NCBI GenBank assembly: GCA_964465685.1
Contig: CAYXKK010000004.1
Span: 24,697-88,696, forward strand
Length of the DNA: 64,000 nucleotides
From: an uncultured Melioribacter sp.
GTDB lineage: Bacteria; Bacteroidota; Ignavibacteria; Kapaibacteriales; Kapaibacteriaceae
Direction of reading: 5' to 3'
Shown here: positions 18,101-24,544 of the stretch, in pieces
Numbering within the stretch: the first letter of the stretch is position 1
How the letters are laid out: each line of letters opens with the position of its first letter
Notes under the pieces: generated by a model
The model's input: the letters and a program-made list of their open reading frames with translations, nothing else
Told to the model about the DNA's origin: nothing
Databases searched by the model: none
Translations under genes and position numbers: made by a program

Positions 18101-18553
18101 ATGATCGTCGATACCCTCGCTTCGCCTATAGCCTTTGCACATCTGCCGTGGTTTGTGCGTGTGCGCGAATTCCTCGCAACGCATGATCTTGATGCCGCAG
18201 AGCCGGGTCGATACGACGTAGATGGCGACCAGTGCTTTGTGATCGTCGCTGACGATGTTCATCGCAACGAGGTTGCATCTCTTGAGGCGCACCGTCAGTA
18301 CATCGATGTGCAGATCGCATTGCACGGATCATTCGACATCATGTGGTCGCCCCTTTCATCATGTGCGCTCGTGTCGAAGCCATACGATGAAGATGCCGAC
18401 ATCGAATTCTACCACGACGTGCCACGTACACGTGTGCATGTTGCCGAAGGCACGGCTGTGGTGTTGTTTCCAGACGATGCGCATGCACCTCAGCCCCCTG
18501 CAGATGCCGTACGAAAGTGTATTTTCAAGGTCCACATTTCGTACATGCAATGA
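18101..18553 (+). CDS. YhcH/YjgK/YiaL (DUF386) family beta-sandwich protein
   Basis: 150 aa in which the DGDQCFVIVADDV...HRQYIDVQIALHGSFDIMW pattern matches the EbgC/TabA-like family. Confidence 0.7.
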   Translation: MIVDTLASPIAFAHLPWFVRVREFLATHDLDAAEPGRYDVDGDQCFVIVADDVHRNEVASLEAHRQYIDVQIALHGSFDIMWSPLSSCALVSKPYDEDADIEFYHDVPRTRVHVAEGTAVVLFPDDAHAPQPPADAVRKCIFKVHISYMQ

Positions 18554-18828
18554 CCAACGACCCAGAGCTCGAGTATTCTCCGCTGACGCAAACGATCTCC
18601 GAACACGATCGTTCGATCGACGTCTACATCTATCGCGAGAAGGGGGGCTCGGATTGGTACCTCGAAGTCGTGGATGATCACGACCACTCATCGGTCTGGG
18701 AAGACTCGTTCCCGTCGGACAAGCAAGCGCTGAACCTTGTGAAGAAGATCATCGCCCAAGAAGGCTTTGCAATCTTCCTCGGTCCGGGTCCGGACGATGA
18801 TGTAGAGATGCCACACAACGAAAGCTAA
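18550..18828 (+). CDS. Small acidic hypothetical protein (92 aa), translationally coupled to the YhcH-family gene by ATGA
   Basis: The ATG at 18550 overlaps the TGA stop of the upstream gene. Very acidic (D/E-rich). No recognisable domain. Confidence 0.45.
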   Translation: MTNDPELEYSPLTQTISEHDRSIDVYIYREKGGSDWYLEVVDDHDHSSVWEDSFPSDKQALNLVKKIIAQEGFAIFLGPGPDDDVEMPHNES

Positions 18829-18834
18829 CTTGTG

Positions 18835-19983
18835 TTACTTGTCGGTGTTGGTGTGACGTATCTGCGTGCGGTGAACATCTAGACCTATTGCAAAGCCGGT
18901 GACACCTTCGTCAGATTGAACTAGACGGATCTTATTGACGGCATTGCCGAAGTCGACCCTGGACCACGTTTTGCCGCCGTCGGTAGTGGTCATTCCGTGG
19001 GGCATAGCGCCAACCCATCCCACGTTCTCATCCAGAAATGCGATTCCGAACTCGCGAAACCTGTGGTCATCCACCATCTTGAGCTCCGTCCACGTCGTTC
19101 CACCATTAGTGGTCTTTGCTACGAATCGTGCAGATGCTGAACGGTCAGGATTGTATGACTGAATCGTGCAGTACCCGACATCGCGCGAGGGGAAGCTAAG
19201 TTTCCACGTGAGTTCAAAGGGACGTGTCGACTGGTAGACCTCGCGCCATGTCGCGCCACCATCGTCGGTCGCGATGATCTGCGCATGTGATTGGGAGACG
19301 TCAGTGTGTGTCGCAGAGGCAATGAATCCGTGGCGGTCATCGAGGAACTTGACATCAAACGCCATTGCAGAAATGTCCGGCACCTTACCTTGTTTCCATG
19401 TTTTCCCGAGGTCGTCCGACCATATGTAGGCTACCGGACCGCCAACGCGGCCAACGCCAATGATGCGCGGACGATAGTCCAGATTCCCTGCGTTGATGAA
19501 CGGAACTTGAACAATGTCGAATGCGCATAAGCCCACGACAGGTTCACCTTCGATAGCAGTGACGGCAGACCACGTTGTTCCTCCATCCTCGGTGCGATAG
19601 AGTGGAATAGTGTCTGTAACTCCTGGGAAGTACCCTGGGCCGATGTTGCCCATCACGCCGTGCTTCTCATCGGTGAACGCGAGGCACCGAACGTATGTGC
19701 CTTTCTTTTCAAACACACTTTTCCAAGTAGTGCCCCCATTGGTCGTGCGAAAGATCTTCCCACTCCCATTACCATAGAACCCAACATTCGCGTTCACGAA
19801 GAAGATGTCGTCTTGCTTGCCGGGGTACTGCTCCGTTTCGAGCTTCGTCCACTTGGGCAAGTTCGCAGATGTCTCGGTTGTTCGAACTTGGGCTGATAGC
19901 ACAACCGCGTACATGAGTGTCCATATCAACAACATTGTAGTAGCCAGTGGCACATGAAAGCGTCGTTGTTGTGCAGTTATCAT
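18835..19983 (-). CDS. Secreted BNR/Asp-box repeat beta-propeller protein (Ycf48/sortilin-like)
   Basis: Signal peptide plus at least five S/T-x-D/N-G-G-x-T-W Asp-boxes (TTNGGTTW, EDGGTTW, DDGGATW, TNGGTTW, TDGGKTW). Confidence 0.7.
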   Translation of the reverse strand: MITAQQRRFHVPLATTMLLIWTLMYAVVLSAQVRTTETSANLPKWTKLETEQYPGKQDDIFFVNANVGFYGNGSGKIFRTTNGGTTWKSVFEKKGTYVRCLAFTDEKHGVMGNIGPGYFPGVTDTIPLYRTEDGGTTWSAVTAIEGEPVVGLCAFDIVQVPFINAGNLDYRPRIIGVGRVGGPVAYIWSDDLGKTWKQGKVPDISAMAFDVKFLDDRHGFIASATHTDVSQSHAQIIATDDGGATWREVYQSTRPFELTWKLSFPSRDVGYCTIQSYNPDRSASARFVAKTTNGGTTWTELKMVDDHRFREFGIAFLDENVGWVGAMPHGMTTTDGGKTWSRVDFGNAVNKIRLVQSDEGVTGFAIGLDVHRTQIRHTNTDK

Positions 19984-20085
19984 AGGTTGTAGCCGTTATG
20001 ATGTGGTACGTGGTGCGGCGAGTTCGTCAATTGGCCGGGCTACTACGGCGTTTGGACAAGAATGTTTCGTCAAGCGGTACAGCAG

Positions 20086-21027
20086 TTACACGTACGATGC
20101 TGCCGTGCGCACGTCATCGTTGAGTGCGTAGGTGAATCCTGGTTGAATGCTGTACGCTCCGTGTGAACCATCGCGGTGCAGCGCGAGAATGCCCACTTGG
20201 AGTTCGCGCCATGCAGGGTTCTTTGCAACAACGCGTTTGATTGCCACTTCACATGCTTGTTGTGGCGAGTCGCCCATCCGCATGCGTTCAACAGCGAGAT
20301 GTGATGCCAATGTGCGGAGCACCGCTTCGCCCAGACCCGTGCATGTAGCGCCCCCTACATCACCATCAACAAACAGTCCAGCGCCGATGATCGGTGAGTC
20401 GCCCACACGTCCATGCATCTTAAAGGCGAGTCCACTCGTGGTGCATGCACCAGCGAGTGCTGCGTTGCTATCCATTGCCAGCAAGCCGATCGTATCGTGA
20501 TTCTCGATGTTGATCACGGGCCTGTATTTCTTCTCGGCAAGCCACTTCGTCCACGCCCTCCAGGACTCAGTGGTCAGCTTGTTGTCGTGTTGTTTGATGC
20601 CTTGTTCGCGAGCGAACTGCTCAGCCCCTTTTCCAACGAGCATCACGTGTGGCGTCTGCTCCATCACCATACGCGCAACTGAAATCGGGTGCTTGATGCC
20701 CTGCACAAAACACACCGAGCCCGCGCGCCCATCGCCATGCATGATGCACGCATCAAGCGTTACGATCCCATCGCGATCGGGGAGTCCACCCAGCCCCACA
20801 CTTCCATTCGAGTCATCCGCCTCGATCACCATCACACCACGCTCCACTGCATCGAGCACGCTTCCACCCTCGCGCAGCACACGAAGCGATTCCACGTTCG
20901 CGCGCACACCAAAGTTCCATGTCGAAATCACCACCGGCTTCGATGGTGCAAACATCTCGCCCTGCAAACGATGTGCAGCAAGTGCTGATGCTCCAATGGT
21001 TGCGGCAAGAAATCGGCGACGATGCAT
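20086..21027 (-). CDS. Ntn-hydrolase of the plant-type asparaginase/glycosylasparaginase family, with a Tat signal
   Basis: Tat signal MHRRRFLAATIGASALAA. An autoproteolytic GT threonine in ...HDTIGLLA... and the glycine-rich GAGLFVDGDVGGATCTGLGE region are typical of isoaspartyl peptidase/N4-GlcNAc-asparaginase. Confidence 0.85.
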   Translation of the reverse strand: MHRRRFLAATIGASALAAHRLQGEMFAPSKPVVISTWNFGVRANVESLRVLREGGSVLDAVERGVMVIEADDSNGSVGLGGLPDRDGIVTLDACIMHGDGRAGSVCFVQGIKHPISVARMVMEQTPHVMLVGKGAEQFAREQGIKQHDNKLTTESWRAWTKWLAEKKYRPVINIENHDTIGLLAMDSNAALAGACTTSGLAFKMHGRVGDSPIIGAGLFVDGDVGGATCTGLGEAVLRTLASHLAVERMRMGDSPQQACEVAIKRVVAKNPAWRELQVGILALHRDGSHGAYSIQPGFTYALNDDVRTAASYV

Positions 21028-21067
21028 AAGGGGGCTCCGTAGAGGGTGAGACGGGAGGGTCGGTGAG

Positions 21068-21135
21068 ACGGTGAACATACAAAAAGCCCCCTACCAGCGA
21101 ATGGGAGAGGGCTTGATGTGATTGTTGTGGGTCGA
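21068..21135. repeat. Copy A of a ~68-bp direct repeat (GACGGTGAACAT-R-CAAAAAGCCCCCTACCAGCGAA-TGG-K-AGAGGGCTTGATGTGATYGTTGTGGGTCGA). It carries a degenerate hairpin that reads as a terminator on the minus strand.
   Basis: About 93% identical to 22151..22220. On the minus strand the sequence reads GCCCTCTCCCATTCGCTGGTAGGGGGCTTTTTG, a stem followed by a U-tract downstream of the DUF2335 gene. Confidence 0.7.
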
Positions 21136-21185
21136 GATAGGCGGGCGATATGTGCGTGCGAGCATCCTCTGGAATGACAGTCCAG

Positions 21186-21611
21186 TTATTCCGCGTCCTT
21201 ACTTCCAGTATCGCGCGAACCAAGAAAGGCAAGTACTACTTGGCCGAGACCGCCAGTCGCAAATGCAACAGCTGCAGCGCTGTGACCGTTGTACCCCAAC
21301 ACAAATCCAAGTACCAGGCAGACGAGTGCGATGGTGGCCGCGATCCATTGGCCGCGACTGAATGCATCGCGGTGCGTTTCGAATAGTTTGCGATCTAGTG
21401 CGTGCCTGTGCTGTTGCTCGAGTTCCATCGAGGTTACGATTCGCTCGGCAAGACCAGGAAACACTTCGTCGTATTGGTGCAAGACTGATGGTGGTGGTAA
21501 TGGACCAGTCCACTGTTGTGTGTGCATCACAACTTGCTTTGCCTGCATTACGACGTTGGCGTTCGGATCAGGTTCCTCTGCCGAATGAAGGTGTTCCGAC
21601 ACACTAGCCAC
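21186..21611 (-). CDS. DUF2335-family predicted membrane protein
   Basis: ...LPPPSVLHQYDEVFPGLAERIVTSMELEQQHRHALDRK... matches the conserved DUF2335 core (PPPEVL..Y..I.PG.AERI...E.EQ.HRH), followed by two TM helices. Local GC is lower (~50%). Confidence 0.65.
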   Translation of the reverse strand: MASVSEHLHSAEEPDPNANVVMQAKQVVMHTQQWTGPLPPPSVLHQYDEVFPGLAERIVTSMELEQQHRHALDRKLFETHRDAFSRGQWIAATIALVCLVLGFVLGYNGHSAAAVAFATGGLGQVVLAFLGSRDTGSKDAE

Positions 21612-21615
21612 TACG

Positions 21616-21993
21616 TTACTTCACAGTCAACTGTTCGACATGCTGATCTATTACCCTCCGCATGTCCGAGCCGACCATCTCTACATCCTGCCTCATTCGA
21701 TCTACGTCAGAATTGCGTGAATGATCATCGAGCCATTCTACGAATAATCGGTTGGGGTGAAGGCGGAACGCAGACCCCATTCCTCTGAAAAAGAACAATC
21801 GGCGGCGGTTACGATGAGAACTCATTGTGGTAGCCCGTATCTGCTGGCTAGTGTACGTAGTGGCGACACCAAATATCGCCAATTCCGTATCAGGCTCAAC
21901 TCTACACAGAGGTTCGTTGTTTACACCATCGTCAGTCGGGTTGCTGCGCTGTTCACAAATCCGATTCTCGAGATTGCTCACGATGTTCTCCAC
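21616..21993 (-). CDS. Hypothetical protein (125 aa), co-oriented with and 4 nt upstream of the DUF2335 gene
   Basis: An ORF only. Lower GC than the surroundings. No recognisable motif. Confidence 0.35.
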   Translation of the reverse strand: MENIVSNLENRICEQRSNPTDDGVNNEPLCRVEPDTELAIFGVATTYTSQQIRATTMSSHRNRRRLFFFRGMGSAFRLHPNRLFVEWLDDHSRNSDVDRMRQDVEMVGSDMRRVIDQHVEQLTVK

Positions 21994-22085
21994 GTACGAA
22001 ACACAATCACGTGCGCCATTACGAGACGCGCTGGTTGATTCAGCACACGTACGGGGACGTAACGTGACACACGCCGTTCATGACG

Positions 22086-22137
22086 TGTGGGTCGACGGTG
22101 TGGAACGAGGAAACGTAGGGTCGACCCTACGTGGTCG
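22086..22137. repeat. GTGGGTCGAC / TAGGGTCGACCCTACGTGGTCG palindromic repeat units (same family as 62305..62412)
   Basis: The 14-bp perfect palindrome TAGGGTCGACCCTA, followed by GTGGTCG, also occurs in three copies near 62.3 kb. Confidence 0.6.
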
Positions 22138-22150
22138 TCCCGTGGGTCTG

Positions 22151-22220
22151 ACGGTGAACATGCAAAAAGCCCCCTACCAGCGAAATGGTAGAGGGCTTGA
22201 TGTGATCGTTGTGGGTCGAC
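22151..22220. repeat. Copy B of the ~68-bp direct repeat, containing the better-formed hairpin
   Basis: Direct repeat of 21068..21135, followed by GCGAGACA-type short tandem motifs. Confidence 0.7.
22165..22197 (-). terminator. Rho-independent terminator of the aconitase gene (minus strand: GCCCTCTACCA-tttcgc-TGGTAGGGGGC-TTTTTG)
   Basis: Imperfect GC-rich stem (~9 of 10 pairs) plus a T5 tract, about 110 nt downstream of the acn stop. Confidence 0.6.
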
Positions 22221-22303
22221 GTGGGTGGGCGAGACACAGGCGACATAGGTGGGCGAGACAGGGGGCGAGACAGGGTCTCGCCCCTACGTGCCTGCGAATG
22301 CTA

Positions 22304-24544
22304 TCAACGTCCTGCGATGAGGTTCAGCGCACTGCCGGCCTTGAACCAGCCGAGTTGTTGCTCGTTCATGGTGTGCTTGAGTTCGATCGTTTCGCTGTTA
22401 CCGTCGTCGTGCTTTACTGTGAGCGTGACGTTTGAGCCGGGAGCGAGCGTAGTGATGTCGATCGACATGCGATCGCCTTCACGGATCTTGTCGTAGTCTG
22501 CTGGGTTCACAAATGTGAGCGGCAGCATGCCTTGCTTCTTGAGGTTGGTTTCGTGAATGCGCGCGAAGCTCTTCACGATGATAGCCTTACCGCCGAGGAA
22601 GCGTGGCTCCATGGCTGCGTGCTCACGTGATGAGCCTTCGCCATAGTTCTCGTCGCCAACAACAACCCATGCAATGCCGCGTGCTTTGTAGTCGCGTGCC
22701 GTGGCTGGTACTTCAGCGTACTCGCCGGTGAACACGTTCTTGACGCTGTTGGCAGTGTCGTTGATGTAGTTGATGGCGCCGATGAACATGTTGTTCGAGA
22801 TGTTGTCGAGGTGACCACGGAAGCGCAACCATGGTCCGGCCATGGAGATGTGGTCGGTTGTGCACTTGCCCTTCGCCTTGAGCAGCAGTGGCATGTCGAT
22901 GTACTCGGATGCGACTGGTGCCTTGAAGGCTTCGAGTGCTTGCAGACGGTTGCTTGCTTGATCGATCACCACCGATACCGTGCTGCCATCAGCAGCTGGT
23001 GCGATGAAGCCGGCTGGATCTGGAACAAAGCCTTGTGCCGGAAGCTCGTCACCAACAGGTGGCTGCAGCATGACGCCGTCGATTGGCTCCTTCATGAAGT
23101 TCGTTGTGAGCTTACCAGCAAGCACAAACGCTGCAACTGTTTCTGGCGATGCAACAAAGGCGTGCGTTTCCTTGATGCCGTCGTTGCGACCTGTGAAGTT
23201 GCGGTTGAACGAGGTGATGATCGAGTTACGATCGCCTTGCTGCACGTCGTGACGCTTCCATTGTCCGATACACGGACCGCATGCATTGGCAAGCACCGTA
23301 CCGCCGATGTTCTCGAGCTTGGCAAGAATGCCGTCGCGCTCGATCGTTGCACGCACCTGCTCGGAGCCCGGCGTAATCGTGAACTCGGCCTTCGCCTTGA
23401 GTCCGTTCTTCGTTGCAAAGTCTGCAATGGCTGCAACACGACTCATGTCTTCGTACGATGAGTTGGTGCATGATCCGATGAGACCAACGCGCAGATCTTC
23501 CGGCCAGTTGTTGTCCTTGACTGCCTTGACGAATTCGGAGAGCTCCATTGCACGGTCTGGTGTGAACGGACCGTTGATGTGCGGCTCGAGTGTGTCGAGA
23601 TTGATTTCGATTACTTGGTCGTAGTACGCCGATGGATTTGCGAACACTTCGTCGTCTGCACGCAGGTGTTCTGCAACTGTGTTCGCAAGTGCTGCGACGT
23701 CAGCACGATCGCTCGACAGCAGGTAGCGCTCCATCGACGCATCGTATGGGAACACCGATGTTGTTGCGCCGATTTCCGCACCCATGTTGCAGATCGTACC
23801 CTTACCTGTTGCTGAGAACGATGCAGTGCCGTCGCCGAAGTACTCAACGATTGCGCCTGTTCCACCCTTTACTGTGAGGATGCCGGCGAGCTTCAGGATC
23901 ACGTCCTTCGGGCTCGTCCAGCCGTTCATCTTGCCCGTGAGCTTCACACCGATCAGCTTTGGCATCTGAAGTTCCCATGGCATGCCAGCCATAACGTCCA
24001 CTGCATCAGCACCACCAACGCCAATGGCGATCATACCCATACCACCAGCATTTGGTGTGTGTGAGTCTGTGCCGATCATCATGCCGCCTGGGAAGGCGTA
24101 GTTCTCAAGCACAACTTGGTGAATGATACCTGCGCCTGGCTTCCAGAAGCCAATGCCGTACTTCTGCGAAACGCTCGAAAGGAAGTCGAAGACTTCCTTG
24201 TTTTCCTTGAGCGATGTTTCCAAGTCGTTCGTTGCGCCATGCTCAGCACGGATCAGGTGATCGCAGTGCACTGTCGACGGAACGGCAACCGTTGGAATGC
24301 CGGCCGACATGAACTGCAGCAACGCCATTTGTGCCGTTGCATCCTGCATCGCGACGCGGTCAGGATTGAAGTCCACATACGCGCCACCACGTGTGTAGGC
24401 CGCTGTTGGCAGCTCCACCATGTGTGCATAGAGGATCTTCTCTGCAAGGGTGAGTGGACGTCCGACGAGTGCTCGCGCAGCCGCGACTTTTGATGGAAGG
24501 TGTTCGTACACCTTCTTGATCATGGAGATATCTTGAGTTGCCAT
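22304..24544 (-). CDS. acn: Aconitate hydratase (746 aa)
   Basis: Fe-S ligands and the substrate-binding motifs of the aconitase family ([30 protein letters not shown], a C-terminal swivel domain with a SR-containing region). Confidence 0.93.

Follow-up and report, generated by a model that had tools for sequence, protein, structure and literature searches.

How does a pair of small genes come to lie between two similar terminators, one of which appears to belong to the essential tricarboxylic acid (TCA) cycle gene next to it? The question is raised by a 64,000-nucleotide (nt) stretch of DNA from an uncultured Melioribacter sp. (hereafter the window), in which the aconitate hydratase gene acn and a gene of the Asparaginase_2 family are separated by an islet encoding a DUF2335 membrane protein and, upstream of it, an open reading frame (ORF) called ORF125. 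We compared this locus with loci of relatives, which are numbered (L001, L011, L013, L133 and so on) and add up to ~1.3 Mb; positions are window coordinates unless a locus number precedes them. Our findings support the view that the islet is a real, horizontally exchanged polymorphism of a familiar kind, which recombines clade-wide at a hot spot. It is best explained as a self-contained ~1.05-kb accessory unit at the intrinsic terminator of acn, its parts being a presumed promoter/operator, the small helical core of ORF125, the DUF2335 protein with two transmembrane segments and a terminator of its own (copy A), which repeats that of acn (copy B). The same junction is also where relatives carry variable defence cargo.

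Occupied, empty and exchanged sites

An earlier, sequence-only reading of the window had proposed an insertion into the 3' region of acn and expected close relatives to show one repeat copy and no cassette. This is what we find in L011, where acn (95.6% nt identity to the window), one terminator and the asparaginase gene follow each other with nothing in between. L011 is as close to the window as the cassette-bearing L001 (acn 95.6%, ABC-F gene 91.9% for L011), and L001 and L011 are collinear (96-97% identity) but for a single block of 5,412 bp in L001, which is inserted at TGTATGTTCA^CCGTCTCAC. L070, too, has a single terminator copy in the same place, and in L012 the hairpin is a variant that keeps the 3' arm unchanged. 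At least ten other assemblies, on the other hand, have both genes and both repeats downstream of acn, among them L001/L003 (acn 95.6% nt), L013 (identical to L002 in their overlap) and L004-L010, which speaks for an old polymorphism shared by the clade rather than a recent private insertion. The sequence-only reading had held that such conserved synteny, with backbone-like composition, would count against an insertion: the synteny is there, but so is the equally close and empty L011. Among further acn loci at 68-90% amino acid (aa) identity, the pair is seen in one of 67, namely L013. Since an independent assembly (L133) reproduces the whole window architecture at ~99% identity, the arrangement is not an assembly artefact.

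Evidence for exchange comes from discordant identities. L013 represents a species different from that of the window, and here the ABC-F gene is 72.7% and acn 83.5% identical to the window at the nt level but the cassette 98.6%, in line with the insertion proposed earlier. When L001 and L013 are compared in sliding windows, identity climbs from ~70% in mid-acn through ~90% to 97-100% over the last ~600 nt of acn, stays high up to copy A and then collapses, a profile typical of an imported tract, with its left crossover inside acn. The reverse discordance is seen with L005, where the acn tail is 97% identical to the window and the cassette only 83-89%. These comparisons demonstrate that the pair moves between lineages and species, with at least one transfer tract beginning inside acn. 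Beyond copy A, L013 has no homology to L001 or to the window, and we found no right-hand crossover there; the L013 pattern would fit homology-facilitated illegitimate recombination that is anchored in acn only. As a separate observation, setting L013 (10242-17640) against L014 (10242-10478) delimits an imported block of ~7.4 kb between acn and an HTH_17/PIN_3 pair, and the native downstream neighbour of acn in the L013 lineage is not the asparaginase gene.

All other cassette loci that reach past copy A share a conserved ~60-nt island left end, followed by variable cargo, usually of defence genes, among which are a type IIG restriction-modification enzyme (PADLOC E 0), bSEFIR (4e-48) and a PIN toxin-antitoxin pair. 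In L096, acn and the pair are separated by a SoFic-like gene (4.5e-40), and the window itself has no defence island after copy A. A pair that is 76% identical and has a partner protein of 69 aa occupies a different slot in L102, where it takes the place of the PIN_3 toxin gene that follows an HTH_17 gene, the rest of the island being 94-97% identical to that of L002 (L102 1893-2735 vs L002 9062-9719); one slot can hence hold either the pair or a toxin. Duplicated terminators are missing from more distant lineages, in which the order is either acn, Fic gene, pair or pair, type IIG restriction-modification gene.

Terminator copies and layout of the locus

The ~68-bp near-identical direct repeats of the sequence-only reading are real but longer, as copies A and B extend over ~90 nt and are 88-91% identical; they align as a 43-nt block (91%) and a 49-nt block (88%) with one indel in between, at a spacing of 1083/1084 nt. 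Two sub-patterns of their core each occur exactly twice in the window against an expectation of zero (100 shuffles). On the minus (coding) strand, each copy has a 13-bp GC-rich stem followed by CUUUUUG, so the hairpin and U-tract that had been described are both there, and both hairpins have the sequence features of intrinsic terminators, a GC-rich stem-loop and a U-tract after a stop codon. Copy B, whose hairpin reaches -29.4 kcal/mol (z -4.3), is separated from the acn stop by 72 nt, and its assignment as the natural acn terminator is upheld by the single-copy homologues at this place in L011 and L070. Copy A (hairpin -24.6 kcal/mol, z -2.9) follows the DUF2335 stop by 37 nt and is, as proposed, slightly degenerate with one C/U mismatch in the stem, which is private to the window since the L133 stem is free of it. 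A simple terminator scan listed neither hairpin.

What all relatives have in common is a core of 46-47 nt. This shared unit, ATCAAGCCCTCTACCATTCGCTGGTAGGGGGCTTTTTGTATGTTCA, consists of the terminator plus ~10 nt (~46 nt in all) and occurs as a single copy in empty-site relatives, whereas occupied genomes have two, in direct orientation on either side of the pair; its copy number tracks the cassette, being one in L011 and L070 and two in every cassette-bearing locus. Neither the window nor the ~1.3 Mb of fetched loci contained the core at any other place. An exact 21-mer scan of GTDB genomes (genome_contigs) gave no match because the representative genomes differ by one loop base, and a degenerate-pattern scan of Joint Genome Institute (JGI) metagenomes (metagenome_contigs) returned only L001's own contig with its two copies. 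In relatives, the direct repeat measures 36-50 nt (hairpin, T-tract and up to ~10 nt more) and the ~90-nt version is confined to the window and L133. Here, the 5' extension of copy B matches the sequence that forms the cassette 3' end, ahead of copy A, in all relatives, and the 3' extension of copy A is native empty-site flank, TGTATGTTCACCGTCTCAC being equal to the flank in L011. The repeat length of ~68-90 nt is specific to the window lineage and the ancestral duplication was ~46 nt.

All relevant genes at the locus, from the ABC-F gene to the asparaginase gene, are on the minus strand (Table 1). The 3' end of acn and its terminator form the left anchor of the islet, acn being syntenic in 80 related loci, and the asparaginase gene, which directly follows the single terminator in L011, is its right-hand core neighbour. 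An exact look-up of the acn protein found no record, and no Rfam family was found at 20000-23000 (E <= 1).

Table 1. Coordinates of the islet, its terminator copies and the flanking genes in the window, in order of transcription
Feature	Position	Strand	Details
ABC-F ATPase gene	27078-25294	-	
MazE/PIN toxin-antitoxin pair	25184-24595	-	between ABC-F gene and acn
acn, aconitate hydratase, 746 aa	22304..24544	-	Pfam Aconitase E 7.8e-145, Aconitase_C E 4.9e-45
acn-proximal spacer, lineage-specific	22233..22303	-	carries GGGCGAGAC copies
Repeat copy B, acn terminator (predicted)	22142..22232	-	core 22155-22201, hairpin 22167-22198, U-tract 22164-22168 (A-run on the plus strand)
Cassette 5' non-coding region, presumed promoter/operator	21994..22141	-	
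ORF125, DUF2335 partner gene	21616..21993	-	core within 21616-21825
DUF2335 membrane protein, 141 aa	21186..21611	-	PF10097 E 1.3e-13
Repeat copy A, cassette terminator (predicted)	21059..21148	-	core 21072-21117, hairpin 21084-21114, U-tract 21081-21085
Asparaginase_2 family gene	20086..21027	-	PF01112 E 1.5e-66; conserved start MHRRRF at 21027

The cassette had also been described as low in GC (~50% against a background of ~60%). This was not borne out: it measures 53.0% against a window mean of 55.4%, with ORF125 alone at 49.7%, and third-position GC of the two genes is lower at 0.51 and 0.55 against 0.61 +/- 0.054 (61 ORFs). We have rejected strong compositional foreignness, as the cassette GC lies only at the 11th percentile of 1-kb windows.

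Between copy B and ORF125, the 5' non-coding region holds a perfect 20-bp palindrome, ACGTAGGGTCGACCCTACGT (22113-22132), just downstream of copy B, together with GTCGACCC motifs. Relatives carry an expanded version of the palindrome, and type-2 alleles have a 20-nt tandem repeat, CGTCCCCCGCGCCACACCGT, in two to five copies in the same region. The palindrome region is a candidate operator and we infer promoter function for the region as a whole, where a sigma-70 scan found no promoter. On the other side of copy B, the acn-proximal spacer has four copies of GGGCGAGAC at 22227-22283, three direct and one inverted, which form a hairpin with a perfect 10-bp stem at 22262-22284; the entire window has five copies (0.64 expected). 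The spacer of L001, L011 and L013 differs from that of the window and has a GCCGGGA...TCCCGGC hairpin instead, and L012 shows two GGGCGAGACGCCGTCTCGCCCC hairpins at the position of the GGGCGAGAC spacer. The GGGCGAGAC and GGGCGAGACGCCGTCTCGCCCC hairpins may make up a small palindromic repeat family.

Further differences among relatives concern the surroundings of the islet. The BNR-repeat gene downstream of the asparaginase gene (18835-19983) is missing in L001, and L070 is without the asparaginase gene, its acn terminator abutting a region (L070 10320-10700) that resembles, by eye only, the 103-aa ORF at 18517-18828 of the window. In the more distant L019, a 3-copy tandem repeat directly follows acn, and the interval up to the asparaginase gene holds a 130-aa ORF (L019 13144-13536) with the HUH-type motif DHIHIVLS, by eye a Y1 transposase similar to those of IS200 insertion sequences (IS) or to RAYTs (tyrosine transposases associated with repetitive extragenic palindromic, REP, elements), next to apparent ORFs of the short-chain dehydrogenase/reductase (SDR) and nitronate-monooxygenase types (also judged by eye). 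The whole interval downstream of acn is rearrangement-prone. Upstream of acn, the MazE/PIN pair is polymorphic for presence: it is missing from the nearest relatives (L001, L011, L070, L012, L013) and present in the more distant L022, L023 and L028, with MazE at 93-94% and PIN at 83-87% aa identity and an acn that is only 84-87% identical. Accessory modules therefore occur on both sides of acn.

ORF125 and DUF2335 in bacteria and phages

The sequence-only reading had identified the DUF2335 protein correctly. Our search against PF10097 gave 51 bits (gathering cut-off 25) and a further match is with phrog_3996 (E 3e-31); two transmembrane helices lie at the C-terminus. Its gene starts 4 nt after the ORF125 stop, and both ORFs are intact in all cassette-bearing loci. 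Ratios of non-synonymous to synonymous substitution rates (dN/dS) are 0.04-0.22 for DUF2335, 0.36 for the ~65-aa C-terminal core of ORF125 and 1.19 (small counts) for its N-terminal 56 codons, values which indicate purifying selection on DUF2335 and the ORF125 core. The first 56 codons of ORF125 show little conservation and may not be translated. Only eight ORF125 homologues turned up among 1.84 billion representative proteins, aligning at residues ~57-125, and since most of them measure 69-90 aa, the real product may start at Met57 (21825, 69 aa). No Pfam or NCBIfam model matched ORF125, and profile searches of the PDB matched only designed coiled coils and repeat proteins. As for the name 'DUF2335', two papers on type VI secretion give it to a phospholipase toxin domain that seems to belong to another family, by the looks of it a slip for another DUF number; we found no literature dealing with PF10097 itself.

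That DUF2335 is frequent on phages and plasmids, as the sequence-only reading had it, agrees with our finding of relatives in 31 phage and 13 plasmid records. We ran a hidden Markov model (HMM) of the ORF125 core against 2,799 ORFs, which came from 33 DUF2335-encoding loci of phages or viruses; the 16 best matches (8 with E < 1e-3) all lie directly upstream of DUF2335 and on the same strand, which identifies ORF125 as a conserved partner of DUF2335. One example is gp32 of Pseudomonas phage MD8, a small ORF that overlaps the DUF2335 gene of this phage beside the integrase and matches phrog_26284 (E 2e-5), as does ORF125 (E 6e-5). Alignment by hhalign gave a probability of 91% (E 1e-6) for ORF125 with MD8 gp32 and of 62% with Xfas53 gp43. 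The homology is visible with profiles only, and tblastn of ORF125 against phage genomes found no match. The places that the pair takes in annotated phages are moron positions: next to the integrase, within tail modules, or at the prophage end behind the lysis genes.

Origin of the islet and its place among known elements

We think it probable, albeit well short of certain, that the pair is a phage-moron-type module which integrated Campbell-fashion at the acn terminator and then spread by homologous recombination. First, a circular molecule with the pair and a terminator copy would have recombined with the terminator on the chromosome by a single crossover, carried out either by RecA on ~46 nt of homology or by a recombinase supplied in trans. 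A Campbell crossover of this kind would duplicate the homologous segment, and acn and the new operon would each keep a working terminator. Later spread and loss may then have proceeded by homologous recombination with acn and the terminator copies as anchors. In the window lineage, a secondary conversion or recombination between the copies may have lengthened the repeat to ~90 nt, as suggested by a copy B extension that equals the cassette 3' end and a copy A extension that equals native flank. As to the role of the pair, membrane-level phage protection, e.g. superinfection exclusion or abortive infection, may be envisaged as the most likely single function, a tentative assignment drawn from phage location and defence neighbourhood. 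An equally tentative idea is that the ORF125 core and DUF2335 form a previously undescribed two-gene system of anti-phage defence or superinfection exclusion, which would be a moron in temperate phages and a swappable cassette of defence hot spots in bacteria.

Several points weigh against this account. Among the Pfam matches of called genes (in L001-L004, L096-L102 and one further listed locus), there is no recombinase or mobility gene in the cassette or the adjacent islands. The clean empty site could equally have come from precise deletion between the repeats, so that it does not tell gain from loss at any one node, and the island-less state of the window may be either ancestral or a secondary loss, for which copy A could have recombined with the terminator that an empty-site allele carries. 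In L096, L097 and L102 the pair is not flanked by direct repeats, and since the distant L096 has the pair after acn without duplicated terminators, the association with acn may predate the duplication. Moreover, the compositional signal is weak and termination at either hairpin is a prediction. As for function, which we infer from neighbourhood and phage location, PADLOC models (E <= 1) matched neither ORF125 nor the DUF2335 protein, and PADLOC, NCBIfam and PDB searches brought up nothing for either that would speak for defence. The ORF125 structure model, mostly helices with a disordered N-terminus, has a predicted local distance difference test (pLDDT) score of 57, too poor for a fold search.

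An alternative scenario sees the hairpin as a dedicated site-specific recombination site, at which a tyrosine recombinase (Xer-like or a phage integrase), its gene lying elsewhere, inserts, excises and stacks cargo, so that the islet would resemble a cis-mobilizable element (CIME), an integrative mobilizable element exploiting Xer (IMEX) or a cassette array. Direct repeats that flank the unit together with a clean empty site are what this predicts, the cassette left end, the island left end and the native flank all join at one point after the terminator, and inverted arms of 13 bp around a spacer of 5-6 nt have a geometry like that of lox, dif or FRT; hairpin geometry and recurrent junction leave room for a recombinase acting in trans. 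Against it stand the missing recombinase gene in the cassette and the neighbouring islands examined, the absence of a third copy from the distal end of the islands and of the element from the other loci searched, and a cross-species transfer with its left crossover inside acn rather than at the hairpin. Moreover, loops differ within genomes (TCCGC vs TTCAC in L001, 6 nt vs 5 nt in the window), by which strand exchange would be blocked. To our minds this scenario is unlikely, and an acn terminator hairpin that doubles as recombination site for cassette stacking is a less likely novelty than the two-gene system considered above. Less probable still is a purely vertical history, in which the pair has long belonged to the acn neighbourhood of this clade, the terminator was duplicated locally, empty sites are precise deletions and nothing is mobile. 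In favour of such a history, divergent lineages also have the pair after acn (L096 among them, with a DUF2335 protein only 63% identical), both repeats are retained across cassette alleles that differ by 11-20%, and direct repeats promote precise deletion. The cassette at 98.6% in a backbone at 73-83% (window vs L013) cannot be vertical, however, and neither the mosaic tract in acn, the lack of the pair from 66 of the 67 other acn loci (68-90% aa identity), the 76%-identical pair in a different slot of L102 nor the low third-position GC fits in with it. On the identities between window and L013, purely vertical inheritance seems largely refuted.

Still further down the scale, and in our judgement improbable, comes the option that the repeat is a dispersed REP-like element or miniature inverted-repeat transposable element (MITE) which flanks the two genes by chance. 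The intergenic region is indeed rich in small palindromic units (GGGCGAGAC and GCCGGGA hairpins), and L019 has a RAYT/IS200-like gene in the same interval, but two copies in 64 kb and none elsewhere in the ~1.3 Mb of related loci are few for a dispersed element, the two collection scans gave no copy at other loci, and copy number follows cassette presence exactly. Reading the islet itself as an IS, transposon or MITE was rejected, too, as there are no terminal inverted repeats and no transposase, the duplication measures 46-90 nt and there are two copies only.

If the islet is a Campbell-integrated module spread by homologous recombination, it provides a small and clean case of accessory genes that enter and leave a chromosome without mobility genes of their own, the duplicated terminator letting the insert arrive without disturbing the essential TCA-cycle gene or the gene downstream. 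It also marks the 3' end of acn as a hot spot of defence genes, in an uncultured lineage that is represented by metagenome-assembled genomes only. What is new here, and of modest added value, is the recognition of a partner family for DUF2335, the ORF125 core, which is absent from Pfam; with DUF2335 and this conserved, unannotated partner found together across phages and bacteria, there is a concrete two-gene candidate for functional testing.

Among known kinds of element, integron cassettes (attC) share with the islet a ~1-kb unit without mobility genes that has an imperfect palindrome at its end and the same one ahead of it. Unlike them, the islet has a plain 13-bp terminator stem without R''/L''-L'/R' boxes or a GTTRRRY core (the only GTT on the 3' side reads GTTCACC), two sites only, apparently its own promoter region and no IntI that we could find. 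We have rejected the attC reading, as the consensus boxes are missing and the extended pairing of the window is not kept in relatives. Closer are integrase islands and prophages with attL/attR and recombinase-less CIMEs, where flanking direct repeats also equal the 3' element of the target, the empty site has a single copy and more cargo is stacked beside the second copy; in contrast to them, no integrase or excisionase is encoded within or adjoining the islet, the loop or 'overlap' differs between the copies and the far end of the stacked island has no repeat. Defence islands and hot spots between core genes come to mind because relatives have the pair near type IIG restriction-modification, bSEFIR, SoFic-like and PIN toxin-antitoxin genes, whereas the window site holds the pair alone and neither protein matches a PADLOC model.

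With phage morons, the islet shares the order of a small ORF followed by DUF2335, which is found in MD8 gp32-gp31 and Xylella phage Xfas53 gp43-gp42, and the DUF2335 proteins on both sides have the family architecture; small-ORF/DUF2335 pairs after the lysin also occur in Streptococcus Javan and Lactococcus proPhi6 prophages, the small ORFs of which did not score as ORF125 homologues. The islet pair differs from these in being chromosomal with no phage genes around, in a DUF2335 identity of 29-39% with a partner recognisable by profile only, and in the additional, poorly conserved N-terminal 56 codons of ORF125. Minimal mobile elements, described in Neisseria, and replacement-type flexible genomic islets are exchanged by homologous recombination between conserved flanking genes. 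Their hallmarks (conserved flanks, alternative cargo, no mobility genes, mosaic flanks) all recur here: a small cargo without mobility genes sits between the core genes acn and asparaginase, one site is empty, occupied by the pair or occupied by the pair together with other cargo, depending on the strain, and the flanking gene shows a tract of mosaic identity after transfer. Apart from its host, an uncultured Kapaibacterium-like lineage, what sets the present insert apart is the 46-90-nt terminator duplication that brackets it, which points to an initial Campbell-type single crossover rather than to simple double-crossover replacement.

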